This document shows positions 43,090-62,968 of a DNA stretch of 64,000 nucleotides, one piece after another. The stretch is from Candidatus Zixiibacteriota bacterium (GTDB lineage Bacteria; Zixibacteria; MSB-5A5; GN15; FEB-12). A program made the translations under genes and the position numbers. Location of the stretch: contig JAWXAN010000042.1 in the NCBI GenBank assembly GCA_034439475.1, positions 64,765 through 128,764 on the forward strand, read 5' to 3'. Below the pieces are notes generated by a model, which saw only the letters and a program-made list of their open reading frames with translations, did not search any database and had not been told where the DNA came from. The first letter of the stretch is position 1. Each line of letters opens with the position of its first letter.

Positions 43090-46000
43090 ATGAATCGATT
43101 CGGGTTGTTGTCTATATATTTACTTGCGTGTCTTCTCTGTATTGGTGTTGCTGGCAGCGTTAATGCCGACCCGCTGGTACATCCCCCCATTTTGGAACTG
43201 CCCAATGATACGGCAGTTTTTTTGTGCAAGGGAGACTCTATCTGCTATGTGGTTGCGGCCACCGACACCGATCCCCTCGAAGAACTGACGCTGAGCTTGC
43301 TCAGCGGCCCGATTAGTTTTCCGACCAAAAAATTCGACAATCCGCTCACTACAAAAATCTGCTTCAAACCAACAAGCGGGGGGACATACCGATTCATCTG
43401 GAAAATAGTCGACAATTCCGGCCGGTCGGATATCGATACCGTCATATATACAGTCTTATTCAACGATCCTCCTTCAATGCAAGACCAGTACTTCTCGACG
43501 CTTTTTTGCAGAGGAGAGTCAGTCAGGACCCTGCAAGTTGTAGCTACTGATGCCGAAAACGATATTCTCACATATAAACTGATCTCCGGCCCGGGATCTA
43601 TAAATCCAGAGTCCGGCCTCATCAGTTATCTCCCGATAGCTACCGGCATATATACTTTTTCGGTTCTCGTGACCGATTTATGCGGAAGCGATATGGCCAA
43701 TGTGTTCGACACCGTCGAGGTCGTCAAACCAGCAAAACTTGACTGTCCGGGGGATACCTCAATTACGATCTGCGAGGGGACCAAAATCTGCCTCTATGGT
43801 TTTTCGTCGACCTTCGATGAGACGACTGTATCACATGGCACAATTGTCAATGAGACGCTCTGTTTTACGGCTGATACATCCGGCGTCTATGTTATCAAAG
43901 TTATCGGAACCGACAAATGCGGCGCGGATACCTGTGAAACCAGAGTGACGGTAAACAAAGGCGAACTTCCGAGCATCAAAGACCAATACTTTTCGGGTAG
44001 TTTCTGTTCTGATGAGATAAAAAGAACCCTTCAGGTTATTGCGACCGATGCTGACAATGATGTTCTGACCTATGAATTGCTCTCAGGTCCCGGCTCGATC
44101 AACTCATCGACCGGTTTGATTGCGTACACACCAACAGCAAGTGGCGTTTATACTTTTTTAGTTAGTGTGAGCGATACATGCGGAAGCGCTATCGCACAGG
44201 TATTCGACACGATAGTTGTCAATCCGAAAGGGAAGGTTGACTGCCCCGGCGATACCTCGCTGATGCTTTGCGAAGGAACAAAAGTTTGCCTCCCCGGTTT
44301 CGGATCCGATTTTGAGCATACGACCGTGTCGCTGGGAACGCTTGTCGATGGCACAGTCTGCTTTACGGCTGACACGAGCGGTGTCTATGTTATTAAGTTG
44401 ATAGGCAGCAATGAGTGCGGCGCTGATACCTGCGAGACACGGGTCACGGTCGGAAAGAGTACATTTACAGGATTTGTCTGTGGCGATACCGCCAACAGTA
44501 AAACTCTTAACCTTTGCTCGTCAGAAAATATTACTGTTCTCAAGGATTGTCATATAAATGGCGATCAAGTGTCGGTTATCTCATCATATGGGACATGGAA
44601 TGCTCAGACGGGAAACTGGACCTTCTACGCTGATACAAGCGGATTATATACGACCTTGATCGTTGCAACCGATTCCTGTGGCGCGAGTGATTCGCTCACA
44701 TTAAGTCAGGAAGTGGCAATAAACAAGCCACCCAGGATAGTTTTGCCAAACGACACCACCACGTTCTTATGCGAATCAGATTCGATATGCTTTGAATTCT
44801 TCGTGTTTGATTCACCAAGTGATATCAGAGGTAGAATTGTTGAATCGAACATCGGAAGTTTCAAGCCACAGGCTGCTCCTATTTTATTCCCACAGACCAA
44901 ATTTGAGGTCTGCTTTTTAGGGGACACAGCCGGTGTGTACCAAATTATCATCACCGCCACTGACTCATGCGGTGTAACCGACAAAGATACCGTCTTAGTT
45001 ACCGTCAAGAAAAACCGCGCGCCGTATATTACTATGGCCAACGATTTCACCGTCGCAAGCTGTACCGCTGAAAAAATCTGTTTTTCTGCCACCGCCGATG
45101 ATCTTGATCTCAACATCCAGACTATTACTTCAAATTTTGGTATATTCGATAACAACAGCGATCGAATCTGTTTCGATGCCGACACGAATGGCGTCTACAC
45201 GATCATCCTCACTGCTACCGACAGTTGCGAAGTGAGCGATCAAGACACAACCAAAGTCACGGTCACTGTCAACAAGCCGCCGACATTGAGTCTTGGACCT
45301 GATTTCACCAAAGACACCTGTGGACTCCTGTCCGAAATTTGCATAAACACCGGCATAGTTGACGAGAATATTAAATCTGTCACGACCACTTTTGGGCTTT
45401 ATAATCCTAACACCAAACAGGTCTGTTTTATACCCGATTCATCCGGCCTCTACGTTCTTGTAGTAAGAGTTGTCGACGATTGCAATATCGCTGCAGTAGA
45501 TACGGTCAATATAACCATCGGTCTCAACCACCCGCCGACTGTCAGCGGCTTCAATGATACGACCCTCTATATCTGTTCGCCGCAATATATCTGCCTTAAT
45601 CCTTCGATCATAGATGCTGACAATGATATTGCGTCGGTGACGATCAATCAGGGGAAATTCAAAGACGGCATGTACTGCTTTGTTCCCTACGACAGCGGGA
45701 CATACACGCTTATTTTAACTGTGATCGATTCCTGTGGCAATAAAGTTATAGATACGGCCAAGGTCAAAGTCACAACTGATCAAGGAATGAATGTGGTCGT
45801 CCCGAAAGACACCTCGATTTTCCTCTGCGAAGCGGATACCCTTTGTTTCCCGATAAAAAATATACCCGCCAATGCGACAATTAAAGTTCGCGGTACTGGT
45901 GTCTGGTACAATCCGGCAACCCAAACAGTCTGCTTCTACTCATCATGCTGTATCCAGAACAAGATTTATGTCGATGTGACGACACCATGCGGAAAGCGCA

Positions 46001-49000
46001 CATTCAGCTTCACCGTCAATCTGATGACTAACAGCAAACCGCTGGTGATTCTGCCTCAGGACGGCGCGTATCAACTTTGCGACGCCAAGGAAATCTGTCT
46101 CCCGGCCGGTATTTCTGATTTGGACAAAAATATATCTTCCATTGTGGTGGAAGGCGGAACATACGACGCATACAGCAAAACAATCTGTTTTGCTCCCGAT
46201 ACTGCCGGAGTCTATATTATCAAAGTAACGGCTACCGACTCGTGCGGCCTGGGCGACTCCGATTTTATCCGCGCGACAGTGCGAATCAACTTCCCACCAG
46301 TTATCACGTATACCCCGACAGACAGCATTTTTGAGCAATGTAATCTCACTCAGATTTGTTTGCCGGTAAATGTTTCCGATAATGACAAAAATATCCAAAA
46401 CATTACCGTCTCGAACGGCGGTGTGTATAATGCAATCAACAAAACAGTCTGTTTCAACCCACCGGGCATCGGACAGTTTTGCCTCCAGATGGTTGCCTAT
46501 GACAGTTGCGGTATTGCCGATTCAGCAGACATCTGTTTCACAGTTACCGCGGGCGACTCGGTTGAGATTGCCTGCCCTGTGATAGGCACTCCTGGTCGTT
46601 CACGTGGCTCCGTGACGACCGTTATTCCGGCATTGCTCTGCGGGCCGGACTCTGTTTGTATCCCGCTTGCCGTAACAGGTGATTATTCGTCGATTTCCGT
46701 CACCGGCGGAATATATAAAGATGGTGAGATATGCTTTTACGCTGACACAACCGGTGAATACAGCTTCACGGTTATTGCATCCGGTTCATGCAACAGTGAC
46801 ACCTGCCAGTTTACTTATCCCGTGATGATTGAGCCATCGGTTTTCGTGAGATGCCCAGGCGATACTGCGGTAAATCTTTGTTTTAGCGATACGCTTTGTT
46901 TCCCGATCGAGACATCGGTTCCGATGACCTACCTGACAGTTCTTGGCGGAGGTTACATTGATGGAGCGAACCTCTGCGTTCCGCTCACAGTGACCGGCAC
47001 AAAAATTATTACTGTCATCGCCGCAGGCGAATGCGGCTCAGACACCTGCTCGTTTACAGTCGGTACCAAACTCAATACGCCGCCAAGTGTCAAAGTTGAC
47101 GACACCACGTTTACCCTTTGTGCGCTCGATAAACTCTGCTTCCCAGTTGATGTCTTTGATGTTGATGGTAACCTGAAAGAACTCACAACGTCTATCGGCT
47201 CAGTTGGAAAAGTTGCAATCGAAAATCTTGCCGCACAGGTACTGAATGAAGACGGCCAGCCGACTGTATCAACGACACCGGAATACAAGATATGCTTTAC
47301 CCCAGAAGCTTATGGCACATACAATATTGTTGTCACTGCGATCGATTCATGCGGCAAAACAGATACCGACACTCTGACTGTTACTATCAATCAAGGGGAT
47401 GGTGTCTCGATAGCCTGTCCGAAACTGGACTCGCTCAGTTTTTGCGCTCCGAGCCAAATCTGTCTGCCGATACCAATAACAGGCGAAACGTTTGATGTCA
47501 TTTCCGGCTTTGGCGTCTGGGAAAACGACACCCTCTGTTTTGATGCCGACACAAGCGGATTCTATGCTTTTGACCTGATAGCGACATCAGGATGCAACAC
47601 CGATACTTGTTTAATCGAGATTGCAATCGCGATTTCAGATTCAGTTAACATAACCTGTCCGACCGGGGATACCACCTTGGTTGCCTGTCAGTCACCGGCC
47701 GTCTTCACCTTCCGCTATTCGATTACCGGCAATCCCACCAAGATTACCATTACCCCGCCCAATGCTATATTAGAGGGGGGACTTATCAAATTGACGGTCA
47801 ATCAGACTGGCTCGTATGTGGTCAAAGTTATTGTTGAAGGCAACTGTAATATTGACAGCTGTTTTTTCACTGTGAATGCCGCAATCAATACCCCGCCAGT
47901 GTTGATGGGACCTGAAGATACAAGTCTTGTCGCTTGCGTCCTGAGTACAATATGCCTGCCTATCAAAGCAGTCGATGCCGAAAATAATATCCGTGAAATT
48001 CGGTCGACACTCGGCGTGGTCGATGATTCAGTCATCTGCTTTACTCCGTCGGCATTCGGCGACTATCAAATTATTCTCTCGGCCGTCGATTCCTGCGGCG
48101 AGCGCGCAGTCGATACCTTCTTAATTTCCGTGAATCAGGGAGATTCAGTTGAAATCAACTGCCCGAACTCAACAATCCTTGTCTCGGTGATAGTTCCTGA
48201 TTCGATTCGTGTCCCGCTCACCATTACGCCTGAAGGAGTGGGTGTGATAATCCAGCCCGACGGTTCGGGTTACTATGACCAGAACACCAGCGAGGTTGTT
48301 GTGTATGTGACTTCATATGGAGCGCATTCCTACCAAGTGATTGCTTCAAGTAAATGCGATGTTGACTCATGTGACCTCACTATCGAAGTCGGCGAATATT
48401 TCCCGCCGACTGTGGTGTGTATCGGGACCACAGACACAGTGCTCTGTTTGACCGAACAGGATACGCTCTGTTTGCCGGTAACAGTATCTGGTAGTGCGAC
48501 CAATGTTGCCGTTTCTCCGGCAGGCGTGTACGCTGACGGTCAGGTTTGCATTCCTGTTGACACCGCCGGAACATATTTGGTTCGGATAATCGCCTCAAAC
48601 GAAACCGACGCCGATACCTGCTATTCTTCAATCACAGTTACCCGCAGCAAGCCGCCTGTTGTCGACTTGCCGCCATCGCTGTCATTTGCGCTCTGCCAGT
48701 TCGGAGAGCTGTGTGTCCCGGTTGATATAAGTCAGAGTGACTATGACCTTGCTCAAATTACAGTCAACTTTGGCCGCTACGACTCGACCCTTAAATCAGT
48801 CTGCGCGACATTTGACACAACCGGATTATATACGATAATCGTCTCAGTCATCGACTCATGCGGTAACTCTTCAACCGATACCTCGCTTGTGACTGTCACT
48901 GTCAATACCCCTCCGACTGTTGGCCTTGGCGCTGATTTCAAAGAGTTCTTGTGCGCTGTATCCAGCGAGATTTGTGTGCCAGTAAATGTCTCAGATGACA

Positions 49001-51444
49001 ACCTCGGCACTGTCACCTCCAATTTTGGGGTCTACAGCGCGGTAAAGAATACGGTTTGTTTTATAGCAGATACTTCGGGAATCTACACGATTATTGTGAC
49101 TGCCACCGACACGTGCGGCCAGTCGTCGGTTGATTCAATTAGAATAGACGTTGAAAAGAATACTCCGCCCTCGATTAGCGCTTTCAAAGATACTTTGCTA
49201 TACCTCTGCAAACCACGTGAAATATGCCTCCCGCTCAGCGTTCTCGACATCGATGGCAATCTGGCTTCGGTGACGGTAAATCGCGGCACGATTAAAAATG
49301 GCACAATCTGCTTTGTCCCGTATGACAGCGGGTCATATCAGTTCATTATTACTGCTACAGACTCATGCGGAGCGATCGCTGAGCATCGGGCAACGTTACG
49401 AATCAGAACCGATCAGGGAATTGCGCTTATCTGCCCGAAGGACACAGCGTTGTTCTTGTGCGAGCCTGATACGCTCTGCTTCCCAGTGGGCGGAATCCCT
49501 GACGATGCAACTGTCACAGTGTCAGGAACTGGTGTCTGGTGGGATCCGATAGGACAGAAAGTCTGCTTCTACTCCTCGTGCTGTATCCAAAATAGAATAC
49601 GTGTCAACGCCAAATCAGCATGCGGACAGACATTTACGTGCAGCTTTACTGTCAATCTGATGACCAATGCCAAACCGCTGGTCATTCTGCCCCAGGACAC
49701 GACTGTTGTCCAGTGTGCTCCGACACAAATTTGTTTGCCGGTCGGAATTCAGGATATTGATAAGAATCTTAAAAATATTACGGTTGTTGGCGCAGTTTAT
49801 AACGCACAATCTAAGATTGTTTGTTTCACACCCAATACTGTCGGTACATACACGATAACGGTCAAGGCGACCGACTCATGCGAATTATATGACGATGACA
49901 AAATGGTTGTTCGTGTTGAAGGAAACAAACCGCCGACAATCAGCTACACGCCGGTTGACACGGTATATAATCAGTGCCAGCCAACTCAGATTTGTCTGCC
50001 GGTTTCAATTGCCGATTCCGATAGTAATCTCGGTTCAGTCACGGTAACCGGGGGCGTGTATAACGCTACTCAGGGCACAGTCTGCTTCACGCCGAACAGC
50101 TCCGGCGAGTATTGTGTCATGGTATACGCGAACGATAAATGTGGGACGAGTGACACGCTTGAAATTTGTGTTGACATTACCACAGGCAATTTTGCGGAAA
50201 TTCTCTGCCCAGCCAATCCCTTCAAAGAAGACACGCTCTGCAAACCCGGTCTTGTCTGTGTTCCGCTATCTGTGACTGGAGTGAATTACTCCGTGACGGT
50301 CGAAAGCGGAACATGGGAGAGCAACCAGCTCTGTTTCAGCGCAGACACCAGCGGTGTATATACACTCAAGGTCATTGCCTCAGCGCAGTGCAACAGTGAT
50401 ACCTGTATTGTAAGAGTCCCCATGGTTATCGAACCTAAAATCGAGATTGTTTGTCCGGGTAACCAGAATGTCTTTCTTTGTGGTTCCGATACGCTCTGTT
50501 ATCCATTGACCGTTTTAGGATCAGTAACAAATATCACCGCCAGCGCCGGTGCGTATATCGAGGGCAATAACGTCTGTGTGCCCTTTATCGTGAGTGGCAG
50601 TCGATCCATACAAGTCATCGCCAGCGGTGAATGCGGAGCAGATACCTGCGCGTTTACGATCTCAGCTACAATTAATAGGGCTCCGATTGTGACCCTTGGC
50701 AAAGACAGTGCTTTGACGGTCTGTACTTTGAACCAGATTTGTGTGCCTTTGACTATTCAAGATTTCAATAGTAATATTCGAACGATAACGACCACACTTG
50801 GGACAATTCAGGGCAGCCAGCTTTGCTTTACCCCAACCACATTCGGGACATTCACCCTAATTGTGACTGCCACCGACTCCTGCGGAGCAAGCGGCAAAGA
50901 CACGATCAAAGTGACTATCAACAAAGGCGCCTCGGCTGTTATCACATGTCCCGATAATCTCCAGTTCGCATCGCTTTGCAAACCAGACACGATCTGTATC
51001 ATTGCGCCCATAACACCCGCAAATGCCATTGTCACAATTCTCCCAGCTGGAACGTACAATCCATCAACCGGCACGATCTGTGTGTATGCTGACAAGAGCG
51101 GCACCTTTCCGATTAAGATTATCGCATCCGCCCCATGCGGCACTGATACGTGCGACTTCAATCTTCAAGTCACACTGAACCAAAAGCCGGTTATTTCCTG
51201 TCCCGGAGCAATTGATACGCTTCTCTGCATTGCTTCGCCGACGACGCTGTGCTTCCCAGTGACTGTCACAGGAACAGGAGTCAGTGTTACGGTCAAACCG
51301 TTTGGAACATACTCGGCCGGAACGGTCTGCCTGCCGATATCAGCTGTAGGGACATTCGCAATAAAAATCATCGGAACAGGCGTCTGCGGAGTAGACACCT
51401 GCGAAACTTCGGTGACCGTCCGCAAGGATGAGGCCCTTCGCTAA
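43090..51444 (+). CDS. Giant secreted cysteine-rich modular protein (about 32 Ig-like modules); N-terminal part of a split T9SS cargo
   Basis: GGAGGA RBS (43081-86). Signal peptide MNRFGLLSIYLLACLLCIGVAGSVNA. Reiterated ~85-100-aa modules carry conserved Cys and the core ...(I/V)CF.(A/P)DTSG(V/I)YT...V.ATDSCG..D.DT..VTV. The protein has no C-terminal sorting domain of its own. Confidence 0.9.
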   Translation: MNRFGLLSIYLLACLLCIGVAGSVNADPLVHPPILELPNDTAVFLCKGDSICYVVAATDTDPLEELTLSLLSGPISFPTKKFDNPLTTKICFKPTSGGTYRFIWKIVDNSGRSDIDTVIYTVLFNDPPSMQDQYFSTLFCRGESVRTLQVVATDAENDILTYKLISGPGSINPESGLISYLPIATGIYTFSVLVTDLCGSDMANVFDTVEVVKPAKLDCPGDTSITICEGTKICLYGFSSTFDETTVSHGTIVNETLCFTADTSGVYVIKVIGTDKCGADTCETRVTVNKGELPSIKDQYFSGSFCSDEIKRTLQVIATDADNDVLTYELLSGPGSINSSTGLIAYTPTASGVYTFLVSVSDTCGSAIAQVFDTIVVNPKGKVDCPGDTSLMLCEGTKVCLPGFGSDFEHTTVSLGTLVDGTVCFTADTSGVYVIKLIGSNECGADTCETRVTVGKSTFTGFVCGDTANSKTLNLCSSENITVLKDCHINGDQVSVISSYGTWNAQTGNWTFYADTSGLYTTLIVATDSCGASDSLTLSQEVAINKPPRIVLPNDTTTFLCESDSICFEFFVFDSPSDIRGRIVESNIGSFKPQAAPILFPQTKFEVCFLGDTAGVYQIIITATDSCGVTDKDTVLVTVKKNRAPYITMANDFTVASCTAEKICFSATADDLDLNIQTITSNFGIFDNNSDRICFDADTNGVYTIILTATDSCEVSDQDTTKVTVTVNKPPTLSLGPDFTKDTCGLLSEICINTGIVDENIKSVTTTFGLYNPNTKQVCFIPDSSGLYVLVVRVVDDCNIAAVDTVNITIGLNHPPTVSGFNDTTLYICSPQYICLNPSIIDADNDIASVTINQGKFKDGMYCFVPYDSGTYTLILTVIDSCGNKVIDTAKVKVTTDQGMNVVVPKDTSIFLCEADTLCFPIKNIPANATIKVRGTGVWYNPATQTVCFYSSCCIQNKIYVDVTTPCGKRTFSFTVNLMTNSKPLVILPQDGAYQLCDAKEICLPAGISDLDKNISSIVVEGGTYDAYSKTICFAPDTAGVYIIKVTATDSCGLGDSDFIRATVRINFPPVITYTPTDSIFEQCNLTQICLPVNVSDNDKNIQNITVSNGGVYNAINKTVCFNPPGIGQFCLQMVAYDSCGIADSADICFTVTAGDSVEIACPVIGTPGRSRGSVTTVIPALLCGPDSVCIPLAVTGDYSSISVTGGIYKDGEICFYADTTGEYSFTVIASGSCNSDTCQFTYPVMIEPSVFVRCPGDTAVNLCFSDTLCFPIETSVPMTYLTVLGGGYIDGANLCVPLTVTGTKIITVIAAGECGSDTCSFTVGTKLNTPPSVKVDDTTFTLCALDKLCFPVDVFDVDGNLKELTTSIGSVGKVAIENLAAQVLNEDGQPTVSTTPEYKICFTPEAYGTYNIVVTAIDSCGKTDTDTLTVTINQGDGVSIACPKLDSLSFCAPSQICLPIPITGETFDVISGFGVWENDTLCFDADTSGFYAFDLIATSGCNTDTCLIEIAIAISDSVNITCPTGDTTLVACQSPAVFTFRYSITGNPTKITITPPNAILEGGLIKLTVNQTGSYVVKVIVEGNCNIDSCFFTVNAAINTPPVLMGPEDTSLVACVLSTICLPIKAVDAENNIREIRSTLGVVDDSVICFTPSAFGDYQIILSAVDSCGERAVDTFLISVNQGDSVEINCPNSTILVSVIVPDSIRVPLTITPEGVGVIIQPDGSGYYDQNTSEVVVYVTSYGAHSYQVIASSKCDVDSCDLTIEVGEYFPPTVVCIGTTDTVLCLTEQDTLCLPVTVSGSATNVAVSPAGVYADGQVCIPVDTAGTYLVRIIASNETDADTCYSSITVTRSKPPVVDLPPSLSFALCQFGELCVPVDISQSDYDLAQITVNFGRYDSTLKSVCATFDTTGLYTIIVSVIDSCGNSSTDTSLVTVTVNTPPTVGLGADFKEFLCAVSSEICVPVNVSDDNLGTVTSNFGVYSAVKNTVCFIADTSGIYTIIVTATDTCGQSSVDSIRIDVEKNTPPSISAFKDTLLYLCKPREICLPLSVLDIDGNLASVTVNRGTIKNGTICFVPYDSGSYQFIITATDSCGAIAEHRATLRIRTDQGIALICPKDTALFLCEPDTLCFPVGGIPDDATVTVSGTGVWWDPIGQKVCFYSSCCIQNRIRVNAKSACGQTFTCSFTVNLMTNAKPLVILPQDTTVVQCAPTQICLPVGIQDIDKNLKNITVVGAVYNAQSKIVCFTPNTVGTYTITVKATDSCELYDDDKMVVRVEGNKPPTISYTPVDTVYNQCQPTQICLPVSIADSDSNLGSVTVTGGVYNATQGTVCFTPNSSGEYCVMVYANDKCGTSDTLEICVDITTGNFAEILCPANPFKEDTLCKPGLVCVPLSVTGVNYSVTVESGTWESNQLCFSADTSGVYTLKVIASAQCNSDTCIVRVPMVIEPKIEIVCPGNQNVFLCGSDTLCYPLTVLGSVTNITASAGAYIEGNNVCVPFIVSGSRSIQVIASGECGADTCAFTISATINRAPIVTLGKDSALTVCTLNQICVPLTIQDFNSNIRTITTTLGTIQGSQLCFTPTTFGTFTLIVTATDSCGASGKDTIKVTINKGASAVITCPDNLQFASLCKPDTICIIAPITPANAIVTILPAGTYNPSTGTICVYADKSGTFPIKIIASAPCGTDTCDFNLQVTLNQKPVISCPGAIDTLLCIASPTTLCFPVTVTGTGVSVTVKPFGTYSAGTVCLPISAVGTFAIKIIGTGVCGVDTCETSVTVRKDEALR
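43468..44463 (+). repeat. Tandem duplication (2 x 498 bp, 166 codons) inside the giant gene
   Basis: PPSMQDQYFSTLFC...CGADTCETRVTVNKGE is followed directly by LPSIKDQYFSGSFC...CGADTCETRVTVGKS. The two copies are collinear throughout. Confidence 0.85.
45010..51440 (+). repeat. Super-repeat inside the giant gene: a multi-module block of about 3.63 kb followed by a second, shorter, collinear copy
   Basis: The offset is exactly 3,633 bp at three checkpoints: VNKPPT 45268 / VNTPPT 48901, CFYSSCC 45931 / 49564, and (I/L)CP 46573 / 50206. Module order is conserved to the end of the ORF. Confidence 0.85.
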
Positions 51445-51536
51445 CCGTCCCCTCTGGACTTAGTTTCGAACGCTGTCCCGAGGATTCGACTCCAATCTGC
51501 GTCGATGGAATATATGGCGATGACAGCCGTAGCGCC

Positions 51537-53216
51537 GTGACATTGAGCAAAACATGCGGCATAGGCTCGCTGGTCCTCAGCGGCTCAGATAGTGGCAAAA
51601 TATGTTTTGTTCCAGACACGACCGGCATCTATACCTTCTGTGTTCAAGCTACCGACGGCTGCAATGTGACGAAAGACACCGTGTCTGTAACGATTTTGCC
51701 TAAAGATGATTGCGATGTTTGTGTCCGCTTCTCATTTGACTACGGTGAATGTTCACCTGTGGGCGTGCGCAAGAAAATAGCTCTTAATATCGAATCAAAT
51801 CAGCCCATCGGCGGTTTTGAGCTTCTGTTGAGTTTCGATGCCTCGGTGCTCAGTTTCGTTGGAGCCTCAACAGTTGGAACCGCAATTAAGGATTGGGAGT
51901 ATTTCACATGGAATCTTAAGAGCGCAGGTTGCGGCTCATCGTGTCCCTCGGGACTTATACGGTTTGTGGGAATAGCGGATATTAATAACGGAGCCAAACA
52001 CCCACCCCTGTCGGCCTTCTCGCCCAATGGCGCGCTTGTATTCATTGAATTCCAGATTGCCAACAATCAGAACCTCGGAGATCAATTCGTTCCGGTTTCC
52101 TTTGTATGGTTTAGCTGCGCTGACAATAGTGTCTCCGACCCAACGGGAAGCACTCTGTATGTCGATAGCCGAATCTACAATCCGGGCGGCATTCTGCTGT
52201 GGGACGAATTCAATGATACCGTTTTCCCTGAAAGTAATCGACTGTTCGGTCTTGGAGCGCCAGACAACTGCTTTACCGGCGCTGGCAAGACGCCTCCGCG
52301 GCGGTGTATTGAGTTTATCAACGGCGGAGTTTGTATTATTCATCCGGATTCGATTGATGCTCGCGGCGATGTCAACCTTAATAATCTCGCGTATGAGATA
52401 GCCGATGCCGTGCTCTTCTCAAATTACTTCATCCACGGGCTCGGCGTTTTCACTCTTAGCGTCCCCGGACAGATTGCCGCGACCGATGTCAATGCTGATG
52501 GTTCCACGCTTACTGTTTCTGATTTGACATACCTCATTCGCGTTATTGTCGGCGATGCCGATCCGGTGCCCAAGACAGATCCGTATGCTGAAAACGCATC
52601 GGTAGAAACCGAAACAAGCAATGGGCAAATGACAGTTTCAACCGAAACAGTCGGGGATGTCGGCGGGGCCTATTTTGTCTACGCACTTTCAGAGAACATG
52701 GTGATAGAATCTGTGCAGTTGACCGATGCGTCCTCGCAGATGGACCTCATGTACGGAGTAGAGAACGGCCAGTTGCGAATACTTGTCTGGAATATTGGAA
52801 CAGCACGAATCGAAGCTGGCAAGCATGATCTTCTCAAAATCAACTACGCTGGCGAGGCAGATGTACGGCTGGACAAGGTAGACATAGCCGATTATCATGG
52901 ACGGCCATACGTCACAGGTAAGACCGCTGGAGCTGTTCCGGAAAGCTACACGCTCCAACAGAACTATCCGAATCCGTTCAATCCGACGACTACAATCTCA
53001 TTCAGTCTGCCCGTATCCGGCGTGTGGAAGCTGAGCATATATAATATCAGAGGCGCGCTTGTGAGACAATATACCGGAAGTGACGAAGCTGGCTCAACGA
53101 ATGTCGTCTGGGATGGTAGAACCGAACAAGGTGAAACGAGCGCATCTGGCATGTATCTCTACCGTCTGGAGGCGGCAAGCTTCTTGAAGACAATGAAAAT
53201 GATACTATTGAAGTAA
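51537..53216 (+). CDS. C-terminal part of the split giant protein: one further Cys-rich module, a cohesin-like domain, a dockerin-like pair, a beta-sandwich and the T9SS sorting domain
   Basis: This frame is already open from 51432 and encodes a complete upstream module half (LTVPSGLSFERCPEDSTPICVDGI...). There is no signal peptide at the GTG start. ICFVPDTTGIYTFCVQATDGCN matches the giant-gene module. The C-terminus is LQQNYPNPFNPTTTISFSL...GMYLYRL...MKMILLK. Confidence 0.85.
   Translation: MTLSKTCGIGSLVLSGSDSGKICFVPDTTGIYTFCVQATDGCNVTKDTVSVTILPKDDCDVCVRFSFDYGECSPVGVRKKIALNIESNQPIGGFELLLSFDASVLSFVGASTVGTAIKDWEYFTWNLKSAGCGSSCPSGLIRFVGIADINNGAKHPPLSAFSPNGALVFIEFQIANNQNLGDQFVPVSFVWFSCADNSVSDPTGSTLYVDSRIYNPGGILLWDEFNDTVFPESNRLFGLGAPDNCFTGAGKTPPRRCIEFINGGVCIIHPDSIDARGDVNLNNLAYEIADAVLFSNYFIHGLGVFTLSVPGQIAATDVNADGSTLTVSDLTYLIRVIVGDADPVPKTDPYAENASVETETSNGQMTVSTETVGDVGGAYFVYALSENMVIESVQLTDASSQMDLMYGVENGQLRILVWNIGTARIEAGKHDLLKINYAGEADVRLDKVDIADYHGRPYVTGKTAGAVPESYTLQQNYPNPFNPTTTISFSLPVSGVWKLSIYNIRGALVRQYTGSDEAGSTNVVWDGRTEQGETSASGMYLYRLEAASFLKTMKMILLK
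51711..52346 (+). other. Cohesin-like domain coding segment
   Basis: VRFSFDYGECSPVG..IALNIESNQPIGGFELLLSFDASVLSFVGAS...GALVFIEFQIANNQNLGDQFVPVSF matches the cohesin-type beta-sandwich pattern (GGF.L.L.FD...L.F). Recognised by eye only. Confidence 0.5.
52356..52565 (+). other. Dockerin-like duplicated Ca-binding segment
   Basis: Two EF-hand-like repeats: GDVNLNNLAYEIADAVLFSNYF and TDVNADGSTLTVSDLTYLIRVIVG. Confidence 0.55.
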
Positions 53217-53240
53217 GCAATCCCCTCTTATCTTTCCTCT

Positions 53241-53279
53241 AAGGCGCCCTGCATCCGCAATCGCAGGGCGCCTTTTTTT
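53241..53279. terminator. Strong intrinsic terminator after the split giant gene (convergent with rlmH)
   Basis: 12-bp stem aaggcgccctgc / gcagggcgcctt with loop atccgcaatc, followed by a T-run. Confidence 0.85.
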
Positions 53280-53286
53280 ATATCTG

Positions 53287-53760
53287 CTATTTGTGGTAGG
53301 CAGTACCGGCAAGAATGGTAAAGCCACGATAAAGTTGTTCAAGCAGAACCAGACGAACCACCTGATGAGACATGGTAAGGGGAGAGAGGGAAAGGACGGA
53401 ATTTGCCGAGGTGAGAATCTTGTCGTCAAGGCCATATGCCCCGCCGATAAGAAAATTGACTCTCCCGCCGCTCTCGATGGACAGCCGCCTAAGCATATCT
53501 GCGAAAGCCAGCGAGTCGACGGGTTTGCCTGAATCGCTCAATGCAATCGTATAACCGCCCCGTGACATTTCCTTGGAAAACAGTTCGCCTTCCTGCCGCT
53601 TCAGTTCAGGCACAGGCAAGGCAGAGGCATTCTTGACAGAAGGCAAAATTGTAATTGAAAGAGCAGCGTATTTTAGCAGAAGCGTCTTGTAATGTTCGAT
53701 ACCCTCGGTTATCCAAGGATCTTTGTCCCGGCCCACAGCAATTATTGAAACTTTTAGCAT
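53287..53760 (-). CDS. rlmH: 23S rRNA (pseudouridine1915-N3)-methyltransferase RlmH
   Basis: MLKVSIIAVGRDKD...FLIGGAYGLDDKIL...LSLSPLTMSHQVVRLVLLEQLYRGFTILAGTAYHK. Start taken at the internal ATG at 53760 rather than the track start at 53916. Confidence 0.9.
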   Translation of the reverse strand: MLKVSIIAVGRDKDPWITEGIEHYKTLLLKYAALSITILPSVKNASALPVPELKRQEGELFSKEMSRGGYTIALSDSGKPVDSLAFADMLRRLSIESGGRVNFLIGGAYGLDDKILTSANSVLSLSPLTMSHQVVRLVLLEQLYRGFTILAGTAYHK

Positions 53761-53764
53761 GACT

Positions 53765-54160
53765 TCATGCCTTAAGCAGCTTGAGAATAACACGCCTCGT
53801 TCTTGGTCCATCGAATTCGCAGAAGTAAATCCCTTGCCACTGGCCAAGGATGAGTTTTCCACTTTCAACGATGACTGTGGCCGATGAACCCACAAGCGCC
53901 GTCTTGATATGCGCATCAGAGTTTCCTTCGCTGTGTTGGTAGCCGTCCTGCTGAGGAAACTCTCGTTTCAGTTTGTGCAGAATATCCCGTTTAACGTCGG
54001 GATCGCTGTCTTCGTTGATTGTGACCGCGGAGGTCGTGTGGGGAACAAAACAAACGACTACGCCGTCGGTGAATGCAGCGTCTTCGATTGCGTTCTCTAC
54101 CTGCAAAGTGATATCAATCATTGCCTCGCGTGAGGGCGTCAATAAAGAAAATTCAATCAT
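53765..54160 (-). CDS. yjbQ: YjbQ/UPF0047-family protein (secondary thiamine-phosphate synthase-like)
   Basis: VCFVPHTTSAVTINEDSDPDVKRD...HSEGNSDAHIKTALVGSS...GKLILGQWQGIYFCEFDGPR. Confidence 0.85.
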   Translation of the reverse strand: MIEFSLLTPSREAMIDITLQVENAIEDAAFTDGVVVCFVPHTTSAVTINEDSDPDVKRDILHKLKREFPQQDGYQHSEGNSDAHIKTALVGSSATVIVESGKLILGQWQGIYFCEFDGPRTRRVILKLLKA

Positions 54161-55074
54161 GAGGCGAAAAGGGCTTCGGCAAATTGTTTGGAGTCAAAGC
54201 GCTGGATGTCATGGATCCCCTCACCCAGCCCGACGAAATCGACCGGCACGCCTAATTCCTCGGCAATGGCTATAACCACGCCCCCTTTTGCTGTCCCATC
54301 AAGTTTGGTGATGATAAGTCCGTCACACCCGACGGCCTCCGTGAATACTTTCACTTGTTGCAGAACATTCTGTCCGGCGGTTCCGTCGACAATAAGTTTT
54401 GAAAGAATAGTGGCGTCGGGGGCGGCTTTTTCAATCACCCGTTTAATCTTTTTCAGTTCATCCATCAGATTGCTTTTGGTGTGAAGCCGTCCGGCAGTGT
54501 CGATGAGTAGAATATCTGTTCCACGTGCCCTAGCCGCCGATGCCGCATCGAAGGCCACGGAGGATGGATCCGCGCGTTCTTCGGAACGAATCATTTCGAC
54601 GCCGCTCCGCTCAGCCCAAATTGCTATCTGGTCGATGGCGGCGGCTCGGAAAGTATCACAGGCTCCGATCATAACTTTTTTACCTTCGCATGAGAAGAGA
54701 GTTGCGAGTTTGCCAATAGTGGTTGTTTTGCCAACGCCGTTGACACCGGTGATGAGCCAAATGACCGGCTTACTATCGGATTTTCTGGCAAGCTGAGCGT
54801 CTTTGCGAGACAGGATTAGGGTGATTTCCTCTTTCAACAGCGCCATCAGCTCATCACCCTCGGTGATCTTTTTCTGCCTGGCGCTGATCTTTAGTTTGTC
54901 GATAAGCCTGTTGGTGGCCTGAAAACCGACATCGGCTTGGATAAGAATTTCTTCGATCTCATCGAGCAATTCATCGTCTATTTTACGGCGCAAGATGACT
55001 TCAGAAATTTTGCCAAGGATGGATTCCTTAGTTTTAGACAATGACTTTTTCAGTTTCTCAAAGGGATTAAACAT
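54157..55074 (-). CDS. ftsY: Signal-recognition-particle receptor FtsY (short form, NG domain)
   Basis: GVNGVGKTTTIGKLA, DTAGRLH and ITKLDGTAKGG GTPase motifs. Confidence 0.9.
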   Translation of the reverse strand: MFNPFEKLKKSLSKTKESILGKISEVILRRKIDDELLDEIEEILIQADVGFQATNRLIDKLKISARQKKITEGDELMALLKEEITLILSRKDAQLARKSDSKPVIWLITGVNGVGKTTTIGKLATLFSCEGKKVMIGACDTFRAAAIDQIAIWAERSGVEMIRSEERADPSSVAFDAASAARARGTDILLIDTAGRLHTKSNLMDELKKIKRVIEKAAPDATILSKLIVDGTAGQNVLQQVKVFTEAVGCDGLIITKLDGTAKGGVVIAIAEELGVPVDFVGLGEGIHDIQRFDSKQFAEALFAS

Positions 55075-55090
55075 TAGAGCCGCTTATGGT

Positions 55091-58000
55091 CTACGATTCG
55101 TGATCGCCGGATGGAGTCTTCACGCTCGGCTTGAGCCGATCTTGGATCGATTCAGGAACCGGTTCGCCATTGTCGTCGGCTACAGATCGGGTACGCTTCC
55201 ATAACCTGTTTTCAAAGTTCTGAGGGTCAGATTCAATCACAGTCCGCACAGTGTTTGGTTGGCCATCTTCTGATTCTGTCTCGGCGAATTTTACTGCGAC
55301 AAGCTTGGACACACCGGGTTGTTCCATAGTGATGCCGTAGAGGTTGTCCGCGGTTTCCATCGTTATTTTGTTGTGTGTGATGGTAATAAATTGCGTCTGC
55401 GATGAGAATTTGCGGATGATAGTCAGGAAGCGGCGGCAGTTGGCATCATCAAGCGGGGCATCGATTTCATCGAGAATACAGAACGGCGACGGCTTAACTA
55501 GATAGAGTGAGAAGAGCAGAGATATCGCCGTCAACGCCCGTTCGCCGCCGGACATCATGGTAATGGGCAGAAGTTTTTTGCCGTGAGGACGCGCGATAAT
55601 TTCGATATTGGATTCAAGCGGGTCTTCGGGATTCTCAAGCCGAATCTCAGCCTCGCCGCCGTTGAACAATTCAACAAACAGGGCACGGAAGTTTACCTGA
55701 ACCTTATCGAGCGTCTCATTGAACAACTGCTTGGCTGTCTGATTGATCTTAGTGATTGTAGTCTGAAGGTTGTTTTTGGCTGTTGTTAAATCCCTTATCT
55801 GTTCATCGAGGAATTTCTCGCGCTCGCTTGCTTCCTGATATTCATCCAGCGCAAGCAGGTTAACCGCGCCGAAGCTTTTGAGTTTTTCTTTGAGATCGAC
55901 AAGATTTGCTTTGGCGGTTTCATCGGTCAGTTCACTTTCGGGCCGGCGAGACTCGATGGTTCTAATGTCAATATAGTAGTCATCGCGAAGTTTTTCGGTG
56001 ATGCCTCGAGTCTCAGATTCATTTGTGTTAAGACGGATCTCAATCTGATGAAGCTGTTCGCCAAGCGTATCCTGTTCCTCGCGAAGGTTGCGAATTGTAC
56101 GCTCCTGAGTTGACAAACGTTCGGCAAAACTGCTCTGCTGCTGACGGTACTCGTTCTGTTTTGCTGTATACGCCTCGCGGTGCTCAAAGGATGCTTTCAG
56201 TTCGGTTTCAAGCTCCGTGTTCGTCTTTGTGCCGACAGCAATCTCTTCGAGCAATTGGGCAATTTCCCGCTCTTTGACCAAACGGGTTTGCTCGAGTTCG
56301 GTTTTGATTTCCTGAACATGTTTCATGCGGCTTTCGGTCTGTTGTAGACGACTTTTGGCTTCGATATGAAGTACCTGAAGTTTAGCCACACGCTCCAAAG
56401 CATCGCTTGCGGCCTTTTCGACATCCTCGAGACGAGTGCCGGCCATCTTAATATTTTGAAGAAGATTATCCTTTTGATCGGATAACTGAGTGAAGTCCAA
56501 TCCGAGCGAATATTGACGGTTTTGAATCCGTGTCAATTTGTCTTTGACACCTACTAATTCTTTCTCGAGGCGTTCGACTTCAGCGGTCAATGATCTCTGT
56601 TCAAAACCATGTTCATTGAGTTTATGCTGGACGGCGTCTATTTCTTCCTGGATTGATTCATTGTCAGCCGTCAATGTCCCAGACTGGGCGCGAGCTCCGG
56701 CGAGGGTAACTGCCTCGCGATTCTTTTTCTCACGAATATCAGCAAGCTGGCTGGTGAACTGAGTGATGAACTCTTCCTGCTCCTGAACCTTTTCACGACG
56801 GCGAAAAAGAGGGAAATGATCGTCGGAGCCGCCGGTGATAAGATTGTTGCCATAGAGGATGCCGTCGGTCGAGACGGCTGTAAATCCGTAGGGGAGATGG
56901 GGAAGAATGCTTTCGGGATTGGTTCCTTCGCGGAACACAAGTATGCGAGAGAGTACGGCGTCTTTTAGGGTCTTGAGATAGTCCGGAGCGGTAACAAAAC
57001 TATCAAGCCAGCCAATCACGCCATCGACGTGGATTTCTGGACGTTTCACCGCCGAGTTGATAACGCCTGTATTGGGAACCAGAATGCCGATCTTCCCCTT
57101 TTTTTCAGTTTTCAAAAATGAAATAATTGCTTCGGCAGCGGACTTCTCCTGACAGATAAGAAACTGCGAAATCTCTCCCAATGCAGTCTCAAGAGCGACG
57201 TCCATTCCCGCGACCGGCACAAAATGTTCGGCGACAGTGCCCGCGATAGCCGGCCAGCGGCCTCGGTTTTGCATCGCAACGACCAAGCCTGATTCATACC
57301 CCTCATAATGGAGCATCATCTCCTCAAGAAGTGTCCTACGGGCCTGGCATGCCTCAAGCGAAGCTGTAAGGTTGGACGCCTCCATTGTAAGCTCGTTTCC
57401 ATGTTCGACAAGCCGTTCCATCGTTTCAGTCAGAAAAGTTTGGGTCTGCTCAATTTCGGCGCGTTGACTCTGGAGTTCGTTCAGTCTTTTCTGATCCTGA
57501 TCGACATGGGACAGAATGTCCTGACGAAGCGGATTTCCCTCAGCAAGACGCGCGGTCAATTCGGAGGCAAGCCGTTTTAGTTCATCTTCCTGTTCTTTGA
57601 GCGAGCTTTCTTCGGTCTTGCCGGAGGATAATTTTCCTTCGAGTTCAATTAACTGCTGGTTGTCTGTTTCTTTGCTCGAACGGGCGCTGTGCATCCGTCG
57701 GTCGGATTCGGCTTGACTTGTCTCGGCCTCGGCCAACTGAGCGGCAAGAATTGTGACTTCCTCTGATTGAGTCGCCAATTCGGTATCCGAGACAGCAAGC
57801 TGATCAGAGAGGGTGGCAACTCTCACGGCAGCAGTATTGATATCAGCTGTATTCTTCTCAATTATCTCATTGGCGTGGGCGGTACGGGTGCGAAGCACCG
57901 CAATCCTCTGTTCAAGCGAGTGGGCTGACTCAGATGCCGAGTAGATAAATTGTCCGACCTCGGTCAATTGTCGCTCAATCTCGCTCAATGACTGCCGATC

Positions 58001-58813
58001 CCCCCCAAGACTCGCTGCGGCGCTGTCCAGAGCAGTGGCCCTGCCCAGCTTTTGATCGGAGAGTTGTTTGGAAGAGCCTTTTAGCTCGCGCTTTTCCTTG
58101 TCAAGAGAGTGCACTCGCTGAGTGGCGAAGTACAGCTCCCAATCCTTTATTTCGTTGCGAACTTCGCTGTATCGCTCGGCCTTTTTCTGCTGGCGATGGA
58201 GCGAATTCACGCGAGTCTTGACTTCTGAATGAATATCTTTCAGACGAAGAAAATCATTTTCGGTTGCTTCGAGCTTTCTCAAAGCGGCGCGTTTGCGATG
58301 TTTGTATTTGGTGATACCGGCCGCCTCCTCGAACAGGAAGCGACGTTCCTCGGCTTTATCCGAAATGACTGATTCGATCATATCCTGTTGAATTACCGAA
58401 TACGAGTGCGCGCCCATCCCCGTATCGACAAAAAGCTCGGTGATATCTTTCAGACGGCAGGGAATCTTATTCAGCAGATATTCGGATTCGTCGCTTCTGA
58501 AAAGCCGGCGGGTAATCTGAACCTCGTGGTATTCAGTTGGCAAAACCCCGCGATCATTGACAACGGTAAGCGTGACTTCGGCCATGCCCAACGGCTTCAT
58601 TTCACGTGTGCCATTGAAAATAACCTCTTCCATCTTGCCACCCCGCAACAAAGTCGGTCTCTGCTCGCCCAGCACCCAGCGAAGGGCATCGAGGATATTG
58701 GTTTTTCCACACCCGTTCGGGCCGACAATAGCAGTCACACCCTCAGAAAACTTCACGACAGTTTTATTTGGAAATGATTTAAAGCCGAGTATTTCTAATT
58801 GCTTTAGGTACAT
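55091..58813 (-). CDS. smc: Chromosome segregation protein SMC
   Basis: N-terminal Walker A GPNGCGKTNILDA, long coiled coils with a central hinge, signature MSGGERALTAISL and Walker B FCILDEIDAPLD. Confidence 0.95.
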   Translation of the reverse strand: MYLKQLEILGFKSFPNKTVVKFSEGVTAIVGPNGCGKTNILDALRWVLGEQRPTLLRGGKMEEVIFNGTREMKPLGMAEVTLTVVNDRGVLPTEYHEVQITRRLFRSDESEYLLNKIPCRLKDITELFVDTGMGAHSYSVIQQDMIESVISDKAEERRFLFEEAAGITKYKHRKRAALRKLEATENDFLRLKDIHSEVKTRVNSLHRQQKKAERYSEVRNEIKDWELYFATQRVHSLDKEKRELKGSSKQLSDQKLGRATALDSAAASLGGDRQSLSEIERQLTEVGQFIYSASESAHSLEQRIAVLRTRTAHANEIIEKNTADINTAAVRVATLSDQLAVSDTELATQSEEVTILAAQLAEAETSQAESDRRMHSARSSKETDNQQLIELEGKLSSGKTEESSLKEQEDELKRLASELTARLAEGNPLRQDILSHVDQDQKRLNELQSQRAEIEQTQTFLTETMERLVEHGNELTMEASNLTASLEACQARRTLLEEMMLHYEGYESGLVVAMQNRGRWPAIAGTVAEHFVPVAGMDVALETALGEISQFLICQEKSAAEAIISFLKTEKKGKIGILVPNTGVINSAVKRPEIHVDGVIGWLDSFVTAPDYLKTLKDAVLSRILVFREGTNPESILPHLPYGFTAVSTDGILYGNNLITGGSDDHFPLFRRREKVQEQEEFITQFTSQLADIREKKNREAVTLAGARAQSGTLTADNESIQEEIDAVQHKLNEHGFEQRSLTAEVERLEKELVGVKDKLTRIQNRQYSLGLDFTQLSDQKDNLLQNIKMAGTRLEDVEKAASDALERVAKLQVLHIEAKSRLQQTESRMKHVQEIKTELEQTRLVKEREIAQLLEEIAVGTKTNTELETELKASFEHREAYTAKQNEYRQQQSSFAERLSTQERTIRNLREEQDTLGEQLHQIEIRLNTNESETRGITEKLRDDYYIDIRTIESRRPESELTDETAKANLVDLKEKLKSFGAVNLLALDEYQEASEREKFLDEQIRDLTTAKNNLQTTITKINQTAKQLFNETLDKVQVNFRALFVELFNGGEAEIRLENPEDPLESNIEIIARPHGKKLLPITMMSGGERALTAISLLFSLYLVKPSPFCILDEIDAPLDDANCRRFLTIIRKFSSQTQFITITHNKITMETADNLYGITMEQPGVSKLVAVKFAETESEDGQPNTVRTVIESDPQNFENRLWKRTRSVADDNGEPVPESIQDRLKPSVKTPSGDHES

Positions 58814-58824
58814 GGTCCCTTTCT

Positions 58825-59418
58825 TCAGCCGTTGGTTGCCACAGGAGAGCCATCGAGAGTCCGATTCATAATGGCCGCCAACGTTTCAAGCAGCGAACGA
58901 TAAATATTCCGTTCATCGCGAAGATATTTCGATTTGATTTCGAGGTTGTAAAATGGCTCTCCGATATGATTTCCTCGTCCGATACGAACGGCGTTTGGGA
59001 AATGGAGGAGAACCGTGGATGTAAAGTTCGTTTGTTCCAGACTCAAGTCCATCACAAGGTCAAATTTGTACTCCTGGAGTGATTTCAAAAAAGTCGGCTT
59101 CGGAAGTCCAGCCCAGGTCAGTTGGTCCATAGCAGGGGTGAGCAAGTGGAATCCCTTCCGTGGATAAATGTCCGTCACCTGTACCCCGGGCACAGCGAGG
59201 AGTGTGATGTCGGCGGTCTTAAAGAGACTTGCCAGTTGAGGAAGGAATTGCTTTACAAGAGTCAGCTCGCGCAACCCTGGAGGAAGACAAACAAGAATAT
59301 GTTTTGTGACCATGAGATCGCCCGGAAAGGAGCGGCTGGTTGGCTGCATTTGCTTGCGGAAACGTCGCAGATAAAAATCGGCCACAATTTTCCTGATGTT
59401 GAATATAGGCTTTTTCAT
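58825..59418 (-). CDS. Hypothetical protein
   Basis: 197-aa ORF tightly packed between rodZ-like (adjacent) and smc (11 nt). No motif recognised. Confidence 0.5.
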   Translation of the reverse strand: MKKPIFNIRKIVADFYLRRFRKQMQPTSRSFPGDLMVTKHILVCLPPGLRELTLVKQFLPQLASLFKTADITLLAVPGVQVTDIYPRKGFHLLTPAMDQLTWAGLPKPTFLKSLQEYKFDLVMDLSLEQTNFTSTVLLHFPNAVRIGRGNHIGEPFYNLEIKSKYLRDERNIYRSLLETLAAIMNRTLDGSPVATNG

Positions 59419-60318
59419 TTATCTCCCTGCTCCTTGTACGCCGCTTTGGAGTAGTGTGTCGCCCGCTCGTCCAAGCATCGTATCACTTTGGGATTGAGAA
59501 ATCTCCTCGGGCATGAGGAAGGATGTATAATTGCTTCGATTGACTTCGACCCGGGTCGCCCTACGCGTGCCTGGATCGCTCAGATCAGCTTTTTTCCCGT
59601 TGAGACGAATATCCACAGCCTCCGGTATTCCAATACTGATTATTAACACCTCCTCGGCATCAATCTGATAGTCTTTGCCAATCACAAGGTCCCCGTTTAT
59701 GACCGTGTCACCGTCGGCCAGAATCATCGCTGAGGACTGCACACGAGTCATGATGCTGAGGGTGAGTCCGCTTATTGAATCCAAGGGGGGATTGAAATTC
59801 TGTTCGTTTGAATTGCCCGCATTTGACGAAGATCTAACCCCGGGGCTGACAGAGCTGCCATTCGAGGCCTCTGTTTTATCCGTCACCGAACGGAACAATG
59901 CAAGCCCTAGTATACCTAACACGATAAAAATGAGAATCAGCACCCAACTGCTTTTCTTCGCTGGTTCAATAATATTCTCCTCGATCTTTTGGAATCTCGA
60001 CTTCTTTGATCTTTCGGGGGGCGCAGGAGGCGGGGCGTTTGCTGCGCGCTCGGCGTCTTCTGCGGCCTCTCGTTCGCCAATCTCCTCGCGGATGGCATCG
60101 ACAGTACGGGTGTAGTCGATACCAAGGTAGGTCGCGTATGATTTCGCAAAGAGCATGAAGTACAGTTCGGCAGGTAGTTTACTCGCCGAGCCGTCTTCGA
60201 CATAGCCGAGATTCGTCTCGCTGATTTTCAGTTCATTAGAAATCGTGGACAACTCAAGTTTGCGATGGAGTCGCTCCTGCTTGAGAAGATTGCCGATTTT
60301 TCCATATAATTCATTCAT
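59419..60318 (-). CDS. RodZ-like cytoskeleton-associated protein (XRE-type HTH, TM helix, C-terminal beta domain)
   Basis: N-terminal HTH LLKQERLHRKLELSTISNELKISETNLGYVEDG, a charged linker, the TM helix WVLILIFIVLGILGLALF and a C-terminal DUF4115-like region. Confidence 0.7.
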   Translation of the reverse strand: MNELYGKIGNLLKQERLHRKLELSTISNELKISETNLGYVEDGSASKLPAELYFMLFAKSYATYLGIDYTRTVDAIREEIGEREAAEDAERAANAPPPAPPERSKKSRFQKIEENIIEPAKKSSWVLILIFIVLGILGLALFRSVTDKTEASNGSSVSPGVRSSSNAGNSNEQNFNPPLDSISGLTLSIMTRVQSSAMILADGDTVINGDLVIGKDYQIDAEEVLIISIGIPEAVDIRLNGKKADLSDPGTRRATRVEVNRSNYTSFLMPEEISQSQSDTMLGRAGDTLLQSGVQGAGR

Positions 60319-60332
60319 GTCGCATCATTCTA

Positions 60333-60941: not shown

Positions 60942-61374
60942 GGTCGAGAATAATTGTCACAGGGCCATGATTTGTAAAGGTCAAATCCATTTTTCTGCCA
61001 AACTGACCGGTTTGGGTGTCAAGTCCCGAAGTTTTCATCTTTTCTACAAAGATATTATAGAGTTTCGCCGCTGCAACAGGTTCCATGGCGTCAGTGAAGG
61101 CCGGGCGTCTTCCTTTTCGGGTGTCGGCATAAAGCGTAAACTGCGACACAATCATAATTTGAGCCTGTAGGTCTAAAACCGAGAGGTTCATTTTTTGCTC
61201 GCTGTCTTCAAATATCCGCAAGTTTATTGCTTTGTCAGCCAGTGAGGTACACGATAGCTCATTGTCGCCCGTTTTGGTGCCAAATAATATTAGAAGACCT
61301 TGTGCGATAGAGCTATAAAGCTCTCCGCCGATCCATACCTGACATCCTATAACTCGCTGTAATACCAGTCTCAT
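60931..61374 (-). CDS. dtd: D-aminoacyl-tRNA deacylase
   Basis: MRLVLQRV..., GLLILFG, SQFTLYADTRKGRRPAF and NHGPVTIILD. Confidence 0.9.
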   Translation of the reverse strand: MRLVLQRVIGCQVWIGGELYSSIAQGLLILFGTKTGDNELSCTSLADKAINLRIFEDSEQKMNLSVLDLQAQIMIVSQFTLYADTRKGRRPAFTDAMEPVAAAKLYNIFVEKMKTSGLDTQTGQFGRKMDLTFTNHGPVTIILDHDV

Positions 61375-61875: not shown

Positions 61876-61910
61876 CTCCAATCGGTTACAACGATCCAAA
61901 ATAAAGCTGA

Positions 61911-62959: not shown

Positions 62960-62968
62960 GCCTGTCCC

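Follow-up and report, generated by a model that had tools for sequence, protein, structure and literature searches.

A 64,000-nt stretch of a Candidatus Zixiibacteriota assembly (GCA_034439475.1, contig JAWXAN010000042.1, positions 64,765 to 128,764 of the forward strand; here called the window) contains two neighbouring open reading frames (ORFs) on the same strand. ORF1 encodes a giant protein with an N-terminal signal peptide, and ORF2 encodes a tail that ends in a type IX secretion system (T9SS) sorting domain. The annotation pipeline PGAP issued two records for them, MDZ4723463.1 (SGI97_06130, 'hypothetical protein', 2,784 aa) and MDZ4723464.1 ('T9SS type A sorting domain-containing protein', 559 aa), with no frameshift flag. 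Are these two genes, or the halves of one? The answer is almost certainly one gene that has lost 1 nt in this assembly alone, rather than a pair of native genes or a recoded one, because nine sister contigs and distant homologues keep a single ORF.

Reading frames at the junction

The features at the junction are as follows (coordinates are those of the window).
43090..51441, + strand: N-terminal part of the giant gene, 2,782 codons, with Shine-Dalgarno sequence AGGAGG, ATG 43090, Sec-type signal peptide and ~30 Cys-rich modules resembling immunoglobulin (Ig), PKD or Big_9 domains
51434..51436, + strand: the lesion, a C-run of CCC (CCCC in all nine sister contigs), located from the sister contigs and the homologue alignment
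51435..51700, + strand: last Ig-like module of the array, in frame 0, directly after ...RKDEA, from alignment and structure model
51442..51444, + strand: premature TAA stop in the shifted frame, after a spurious L-R, from the sequence
51537..53216, + strand: ORF2 as annotated in GenBank (GTG start, 559 aa, MDZ4723464.1)

ORF1 lies in frame 1 and runs from GTG 42985 or ATG 43090 to TAA 51442-44; its end reads ...DTCETSVTVRKDEALR. Frame 0 has a TGA at 51429-31, stays open between 51432 and its stop at 53214-16 and begins GPSLTVPSGLSFERCPEDS..., with GTG 51537 as its earliest start codon. The ORF list of the window gives an upstream piece of 2,819 aa (from GTG 42985) and a downstream piece of 559 aa. 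The overlap at the junction is GAG GCC CTT CGC TAA, and the C-terminus of ORF1 is RKDEALR followed by the stop, the final L-R being out-of-frame residues. The truncated product thus ends ...VRKDEALR, and the intact junction peptide is ...SVTVRKDEAPSLTVPSGLSFER....

Adding one C to the run at 51434-36 gives GAG GCC CCT TCG CTA, which reads RKDEAPSLTVP within a single ORF of 3,375 aa. With this C missing, translation ends three codons later and the last 593 residues fall in the other frame. Over its whole length, the junction module of the repaired protein can be aligned with more than 10 of the protein's other modules (E-values down to 5e-11). The earlier note on this DNA, made from the letters alone, had placed the split at 51421-51540, and all of its statements on coordinates and frames held on re-reading. 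It had also proposed that one added base within 51432-51441 would join both ORFs, which the restored C does, and that the downstream frame contains a complete class I module whose start parallels other junctions, with which the module alignment agrees.

The junction in sister contigs of the same population

Sister contigs were found by exact look-up of four neighbour proteins (SMC, UvrB, a 757-aa protein and a SPOUT methyltransferase); each query returned 13-22 contigs that encode identical products, drawn from JGI, from Logan and from one further NCBI assembly. Nine distinct contigs of the same Lake Vanda population contain the junction: five from JGI (3300020186, 3300020192, 3300015360, 3300022222 and 3300020180) and four from Logan (SRR6448204, SRR6448205, SRR6448214 and SRR6448219). 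The sequence is GAGG-CCCC-TTCG in all nine and CCC in none. Over window positions 45092-64000 (18,910 nt) the missing C is the sole difference between the window and the sister contigs L001 and L002; a third sister contig has CCCC plus one further single-nucleotide polymorphism (SNP).

The intact 3,375-aa product is encoded on five contigs, and three further intact variants are on record: one with the substitution C1033Y (3,375 aa), one of 3,410 aa that starts at the upstream GTG, and one of 3,246 aa. The 2,784-aa and 559-aa pieces each occur on a single NCBI contig; exact-product look-ups put the split products on record in no other assembly, an absence that is weak evidence. Exact-pattern scans of genome and metagenome contig collections for the junction gave no match, though JGI contigs with CCCC exist.

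Homologues cross the junction in a single frame

A homology search with the fused query identified ~25 Zixibacteria proteins that cross the junction in one frame; identity is 42-56% along the whole query and 39-53% in the junction stretch (the longest protein among the matches listed has 1,228 aa). A MAFFT alignment of the homologues gives the motif V-x-V-x-x-D-[EQ]-A-P-x-L-x-L-P...ERCP. In the same alignment the window has ...VTVRKDEA in frame 1 and (G)PSLTVPSGLSFERCP in frame 0. The repaired window sequence D-E-A-P-S-L-T-V-P corresponds to the consensus D-[EQ]-A-P-x-L-x-L-P residue for residue, and only CCCC gives this. What the homologues keep at the junction is the protein motif, not the C-tract.

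In species representatives of GTDB the tail always shares its ORF with an N-terminal signal peptide, in ORFs of 830-3,100 codons (~2,370 in L023, ~3,100 in L026, ~1,430 in L024, and ~830-890 in L025 and L028). The family has so far been found mainly in metagenome-assembled genomes (MAGs) of Zixibacteria (GN15). Comparison with orthologues, which the earlier note had suggested as a check, found a two-gene arrangement with a second signal peptide in none of them. Its proposal that both ORFs are halves of one T9SS cargo gene is therefore borne out by the nine sister contigs with CCCC and by the homologues, in which signal peptide, modules and tail stand in one ORF.

A positional orthologue lies in CP070824.1 (GCA_020344395.1, a 3.44-Mb Zixibacteria 'chromosome'), with the same downstream synteny (SPOUT, YjbQ, FtsY, SMC). 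It was rejected as a full-length comparison, as a 100-N scaffold gap (L012 9902-10000) cuts the gene. GenBank gives this orthologue as a 1,174-aa 'partial' protein, and the longest ORF of the pre-gap sequence is on the opposite strand. The repeat-rich orthologue is apparently not resolved there, and a mis-join may be present.

The second ORF

The GTG start of ORF2 falls within an Ig-like module and has no Shine-Dalgarno sequence, no signal peptide and no hydrophobic N-terminal region. ORF2 is an annotation by-product of the frameshift. The earlier note's division of export signals, with a signal peptide on ORF1 only and a sorting domain on ORF2 only, agrees with the Shine-Dalgarno sequence and Sec signal at ORF1 and the TIGR04183 match on ORF2. 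Once the sequence is repaired, and likewise in every sister allele (3,375 aa), signal peptide and C-terminal domain (CTD) stand on one polypeptide; in the deposited window they are on separate ORFs. Literature searches by accession number, and for Zixibacteria together with dockerin, gave no match.

Source assembly and variation in the population

The sister-contig runs SRR6448204-219 are reads of a study of Lake Vanda's microbial-mat pinnacles, which used Illumina HiSeq-2500 2x151 sequencing, MEGAHIT, MetaBAT and PGAP (Powell et al., 2024; PMC11080526). BulkMat.75, the only Zixibacteria MAG of that study, has 2.7 Mb, 48.5% GC and 82 contigs at 44x (PMC11080526).

Within the population, 21 sister loci were compared; together they account for 59,737 of the window's 64,000 bases, with depth averaging 4.9. 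The population is almost clonal, with six variable sites in the ~59.7 kb compared. Three differences are private to the window: the C deletion at 51434-36 and two substitutions, both G/T transversions. At 28312, directly after GGCCCC in a PAP2-family gene, the window has G and sisters L005, L006 and L008 have T (Ala vs Glu); at 28984, in a TP_methylase gene, the window has T and the same three sisters have G, a synonymous change. The PAP2 protein allele of the window is on record nowhere else by exact-product look-up. The other three differences are private to sisters: 8485 in L022, 46187 in L003 and a 1-nt deletion at 28778 in JGI 3300015360 (L006/L014/L105, Ga0163144_10000103). This last deletion, GGG to GG (GCCC to GCC on the coding strand), cuts the product of the PAP2-family gene down from 307 aa to 242. 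Of the six variable sites, two are thus deletions of a single base that break a coding frame; each sits in a short G/C run within a GCCC or GGCCC motif and is private to a single assembly.

Alternative explanations of the split

That the locus is a genuine pair of genes, a module array and a separate cohesin/dockerin/CTD protein, has in its favour that GenBank lists two proteins. This arrangement is seen in no relative, however, and it would place the start of ORF2 inside an Ig-like module, cut in mid-linker, without Shine-Dalgarno sequence or signal peptide; we regard it as practically discounted. Hardly more credible is a native split that is recoded to full length by a programmed -1 ribosomal frameshift or by transcriptional slippage. 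The geometry, a step from frame 1 into frame 0 across an overlap of 10 nt, permits a -1 shift, but there is no X XXY YYZ heptamer within 51400-51444, and the downstream sequence (51437-51536) folds at -27.7 kcal/mol with z = -0.66 vs shuffles, which is no unusual structure. The sister genomes and 25 homologues are moreover in one frame, and C3 is far too short for polymerase slippage. Phase variation, which the earlier note had offered as one cause, would make the C-tract a reversible slipped-strand switch of adhesin display. The lesion is indeed a homopolymer length change within a surface-protein gene, and one of ten assemblies differs. Known phase-variation switches have tracts of ~7 nt or more, whereas the tract here has only 3-4 C, ten runs of 6-7 nt within this gene do not vary, the C-tract is not conserved in homologues, and the Logan contigs pass straight through the site. 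With a tract this short, longer runs unchanged and a single deviating assembly, such a switch is very unlikely.

There remain two accounts of a private deletion in one gene. The C deletion may be a consensus defect of the deposited assembly, arising from an error in sequencing or assembly, or from a minority read variant that MEGAHIT promoted into the contig. This is the account we adopt, though we give it only about an even chance; the organism's gene would then be intact and the two GenBank proteins would be annotation artefacts. Long-read homopolymer error was rejected as its cause, the probable source study being Illumina with MEGAHIT. The other account, which we rate a little below even, is an authentic recent loss-of-function allele, in which a sub-population dominating the bulk-mat sample lost one C, by drift in a clonal patch or by selection against the surface protein. 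Its product would be a fragment of 2,784 aa that lacks a sorting domain and stays trapped in the periplasm, and the tail would be absent; a costly giant adhesin would thereby have been newly knocked out. All nine of the other contigs are intact, from at least five and up to nine samples of the same lake mats, and the split products are recorded in no other assembly, all of which argues against such an allele. So do the private indel-to-SNP ratio (2:4, high for real variation) and the comparable private frameshift in an unrelated gene of another assembly (PAP2, JGI 3300015360). The indel share of two in six hints at a technical origin, as does the GCCC or GGCCC motif around both deletions, a weak argument with six events.

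Several points weigh against a consensus defect and speak for a real allele. The window very probably derives from BulkMat.75, given that this is the only Zixibacteria MAG of the study, that the GC content is equal (48.5% in the window) and that the runs belong to the same SRR series. Consensus indels are uncommon in Illumina/MEGAHIT assemblies, here at 44x, and every k-mer of a contig must occur in the reads; the CCC allele is therefore probably present in some molecules or reads. The two private substitutions and the unique PAP2 allele suggest a distinguishable genotype, so that the sample may be dominated by one that truly carries the deletion, and other SNPs segregate between samples. Giant surface-protein genes are, in addition, common targets of inactivation. 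In the deposited form, ORF1 would yield a product that reaches the periplasm but lacks a sorting signal, and the tail would most likely not be made.

Architecture of the intact protein

The intact gene encodes a 3,375-aa cell-surface protein with a Sec signal, ~31 Cys-rich Ig-like modules, a cohesin-like domain, a dockerin-like stretch, a β-sandwich and a T9SS type A CTD. Two starts have been called for it: GTG 42985 in the older call of JGI 3300015360 (3,410 aa), and ATG 43090 in newer calls and by PGAP. ATG 43090 is the credible start, because a strong AGGAGG lies upstream (7 nt before the ATG, in AGGAGGAAAG-ATG) and the signal peptide is then at the N-terminus. This Sec signal peptide (43090-43167) reads MNRFGLLSIYLLACLLCIGVAGSVNA; signal peptides were judged by hydropathy and inspection. 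The repaired protein contains 168 cysteines (5%) and an ancient internal tandem duplication of ~1,150 aa, in which residues 501-1669 match 1727-2858 with 39% identity over 1,188 aligned positions. The duplication is visible in BLAST of the protein split in two; whole-protein self-BLAST gave no off-diagonal rows. A 'VCFYSSCCIQN' module is found in both copies.

The tail contains four features beyond the last Ig-like module.
51723..52337, + strand: cohesin-like β-sandwich (ORF2 residues ~98-302), from Pfam matches in the family and Foldseek
52350..52580, + strand: dockerin-like stretch in which two Ca-loop-like repeats of the form D-V-N-x-[ND]-G/x occur, RGDVNLNNLAYEIADAV and ATDVNADGSTLTVSDL, from the sequence, a weak assignment
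52593..52922, + strand: second β-sandwich, family unassigned (ORF2 residues ~388-497), from the structure model, with a weak profile match to cohesin 2xdh (E 0.17)
52965..53216, + strand: T9SS type A sorting domain (..QNYPNPFNPTT.. to ..KMILLK) and stop, from TIGR04183

The tail was modelled with AlphaFold2 on a 19-sequence alignment (mean predicted local distance difference test score, pLDDT, 74). Residues 1-95 form the Ig-like module (pLDDT ~90), and their first residues are a β-strand. The sorting domain scores 38.9 bits with TIGR04183 (cut-off 23) at residues 512-591 of 594, with the CTD modelled at 520-592, and the C-terminus also matches FlgD_ig (37.2 bits) and Por_Secre_tail (25.3 bits). 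A sorting domain is matched in 19/19 relatives.

The cohesin and dockerin assignments are of another order. The window protein has no match to Pfam Cohesin or Dockerin even at E<=10, and a direct sequence search of the PDB with the tail was likewise negative. Pfam Cohesin matches 6/19 family members (best E 2.7e-7) and Dockerin_1 two of 19 relatives (best E 0.0066), and the tail profile has weak matches in the PDB to the cohesins 3l8q (E 0.024) and 2xdh (E 0.17). Foldseek finds cohesins 3l8q, 2w1n and 2xdh (E 2.8e-7 to 2.7e-5) among many Ig-array matches, the query being a multi-domain model. The dockerin-like stretch (residues 307-383) is helical in the model at a pLDDT of ~30. For the modelled β-sandwich the label 'cohesin-like' appears reasonable; the label 'dockerin' is tentative. 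Of the cohesin/dockerin/sorting tail that had been read from the sequence alone, the sorting domain is thus secure, and the other two parts are weak, with Pfam matches in relatives only.

By analogy with known T9SS cargo, the native protein would cross the inner membrane by Sec, and its CTD would be recognised by the type IX secretion system for export, probably followed by anchoring on the cell surface as an adhesin-like fibre.

Comparison with known systems

The locus resembles frameshift-split coding sequences in draft genomes and MAGs: adjacent same-strand ORFs in different frames overlap by a few nt, a 1-base indel lies in a short homopolymer, and relatives are intact. PGAP normally flags such cases as a 'frameshifted' pseudogene, whereas the present one is unflagged, and with a short-read source the homopolymer-error explanation is less automatic. 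The homopolymer contingency loci of Neisseria (opa/pilC), Haemophilus and Campylobacter likewise change frame by the length of a mononucleotide run in a surface-protein gene. They differ in tract length (~7 nt or more, against 4 nt here), and the present tract is unconserved in relatives and shows no mixture in the nine other assemblies.

With the giant T9SS adhesins of the Fibrobacterota-Chlorobiota-Bacteroidota (FCB) group, SprB of Flavobacterium johnsoniae and the grappling-hook protein GhpA of Aureispira (9fly), the intact protein shares a multi-thousand-residue Ig-like array, a Sec signal and a T9SS CTD. Foldseek matches of the tail model include the GhpA base (9fly) and PorU. The likeness is one of architecture, with no sequence-level relationship shown; the CTD is of type A (TIGR04183) here and of type B in SprB, and the present protein has a cohesin-like and dockerin-like pair ahead of the CTD. 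This pair recalls cellulosomal cohesin-dockerin systems (PF00963, PF00404) in having a β-sandwich that matches cohesin structures, followed by two Ca-loop-like DxNxDG repeats. Unlike those systems, it has no carbohydrate-active enzymes nearby, and the window protein is without a Pfam match to either model. The presence of both modules within one T9SS cargo suggests self-association or tethering rather than a cellulosome.

Other T9SS-related genes in the window

Two further genes of the window encode T9SS type A cargo.
16793-19714, + strand: S8 subtilase with a hydrophobic N-terminal signal-like segment and a Por_Secre_tail/FlgD_ig C-terminus
19748-22603, + strand: M6 (immune inhibitor A-like) metallopeptidase with the same two features

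The S8 ORF of 973 aa from the first ATG is not on record; sister calls start later and give 949 aa. A 345-aa ORF comes after the gene for a TonB-dependent-receptor-like protein of 1,109 aa, whose N-terminal domain is CarboxypepD_reg (together window 7636-12012, + strand). The 345-aa ORF (10975-12012) reaches 26.1 bits with the PorV model, just below the cut-off of 27, and has a faint Toluene_X match; it may be an outer-membrane PorV/FadL-like partner. Next after it comes the 757-aa protein, which has no Pfam match. PorK/L/M/N, Sov and PorU have no counterpart within the 64-kb window; no genome-wide search was made.

Significance

The frame change is ordinary and mechanistically nothing new, and its main consequence is a correction in GenBank, where the protein records MDZ4723463.1 and MDZ4723464.1 represent the two halves of a single gene and ought either to be merged or to carry the flag of a frameshifted pseudogene. 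As they stand, counts of T9SS cargo, signal peptides or 'orphan' sorting domains in the source MAG would mislead. The locus also illustrates that short G/C runs in MAGs built from Illumina reads alone can contain 1-nt indels that break a frame, with two cases among about ten assemblies of one clonal population.

Across the population at large the giant protein is a normal T9SS cargo. The 3,375-aa Zixibacteria family to which it belongs, with Ig repeats, cohesin-like and dockerin-like modules and a CTD, is uncharacterised and may be of modest interest in its own right. It is possible, if not something we would quite count on, that the CCC allele is real and represents a natural knockout of a 10-kb T9SS adhesin gene, segregating in near-clonal Zixibacteria of an Antarctic lake mat. 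Were CCC the dominant allele of its sample, the knockout would have been sampled no more than a few mutations after it arose, and it could point to local selection against the giant protein or to a relaxed need for it.

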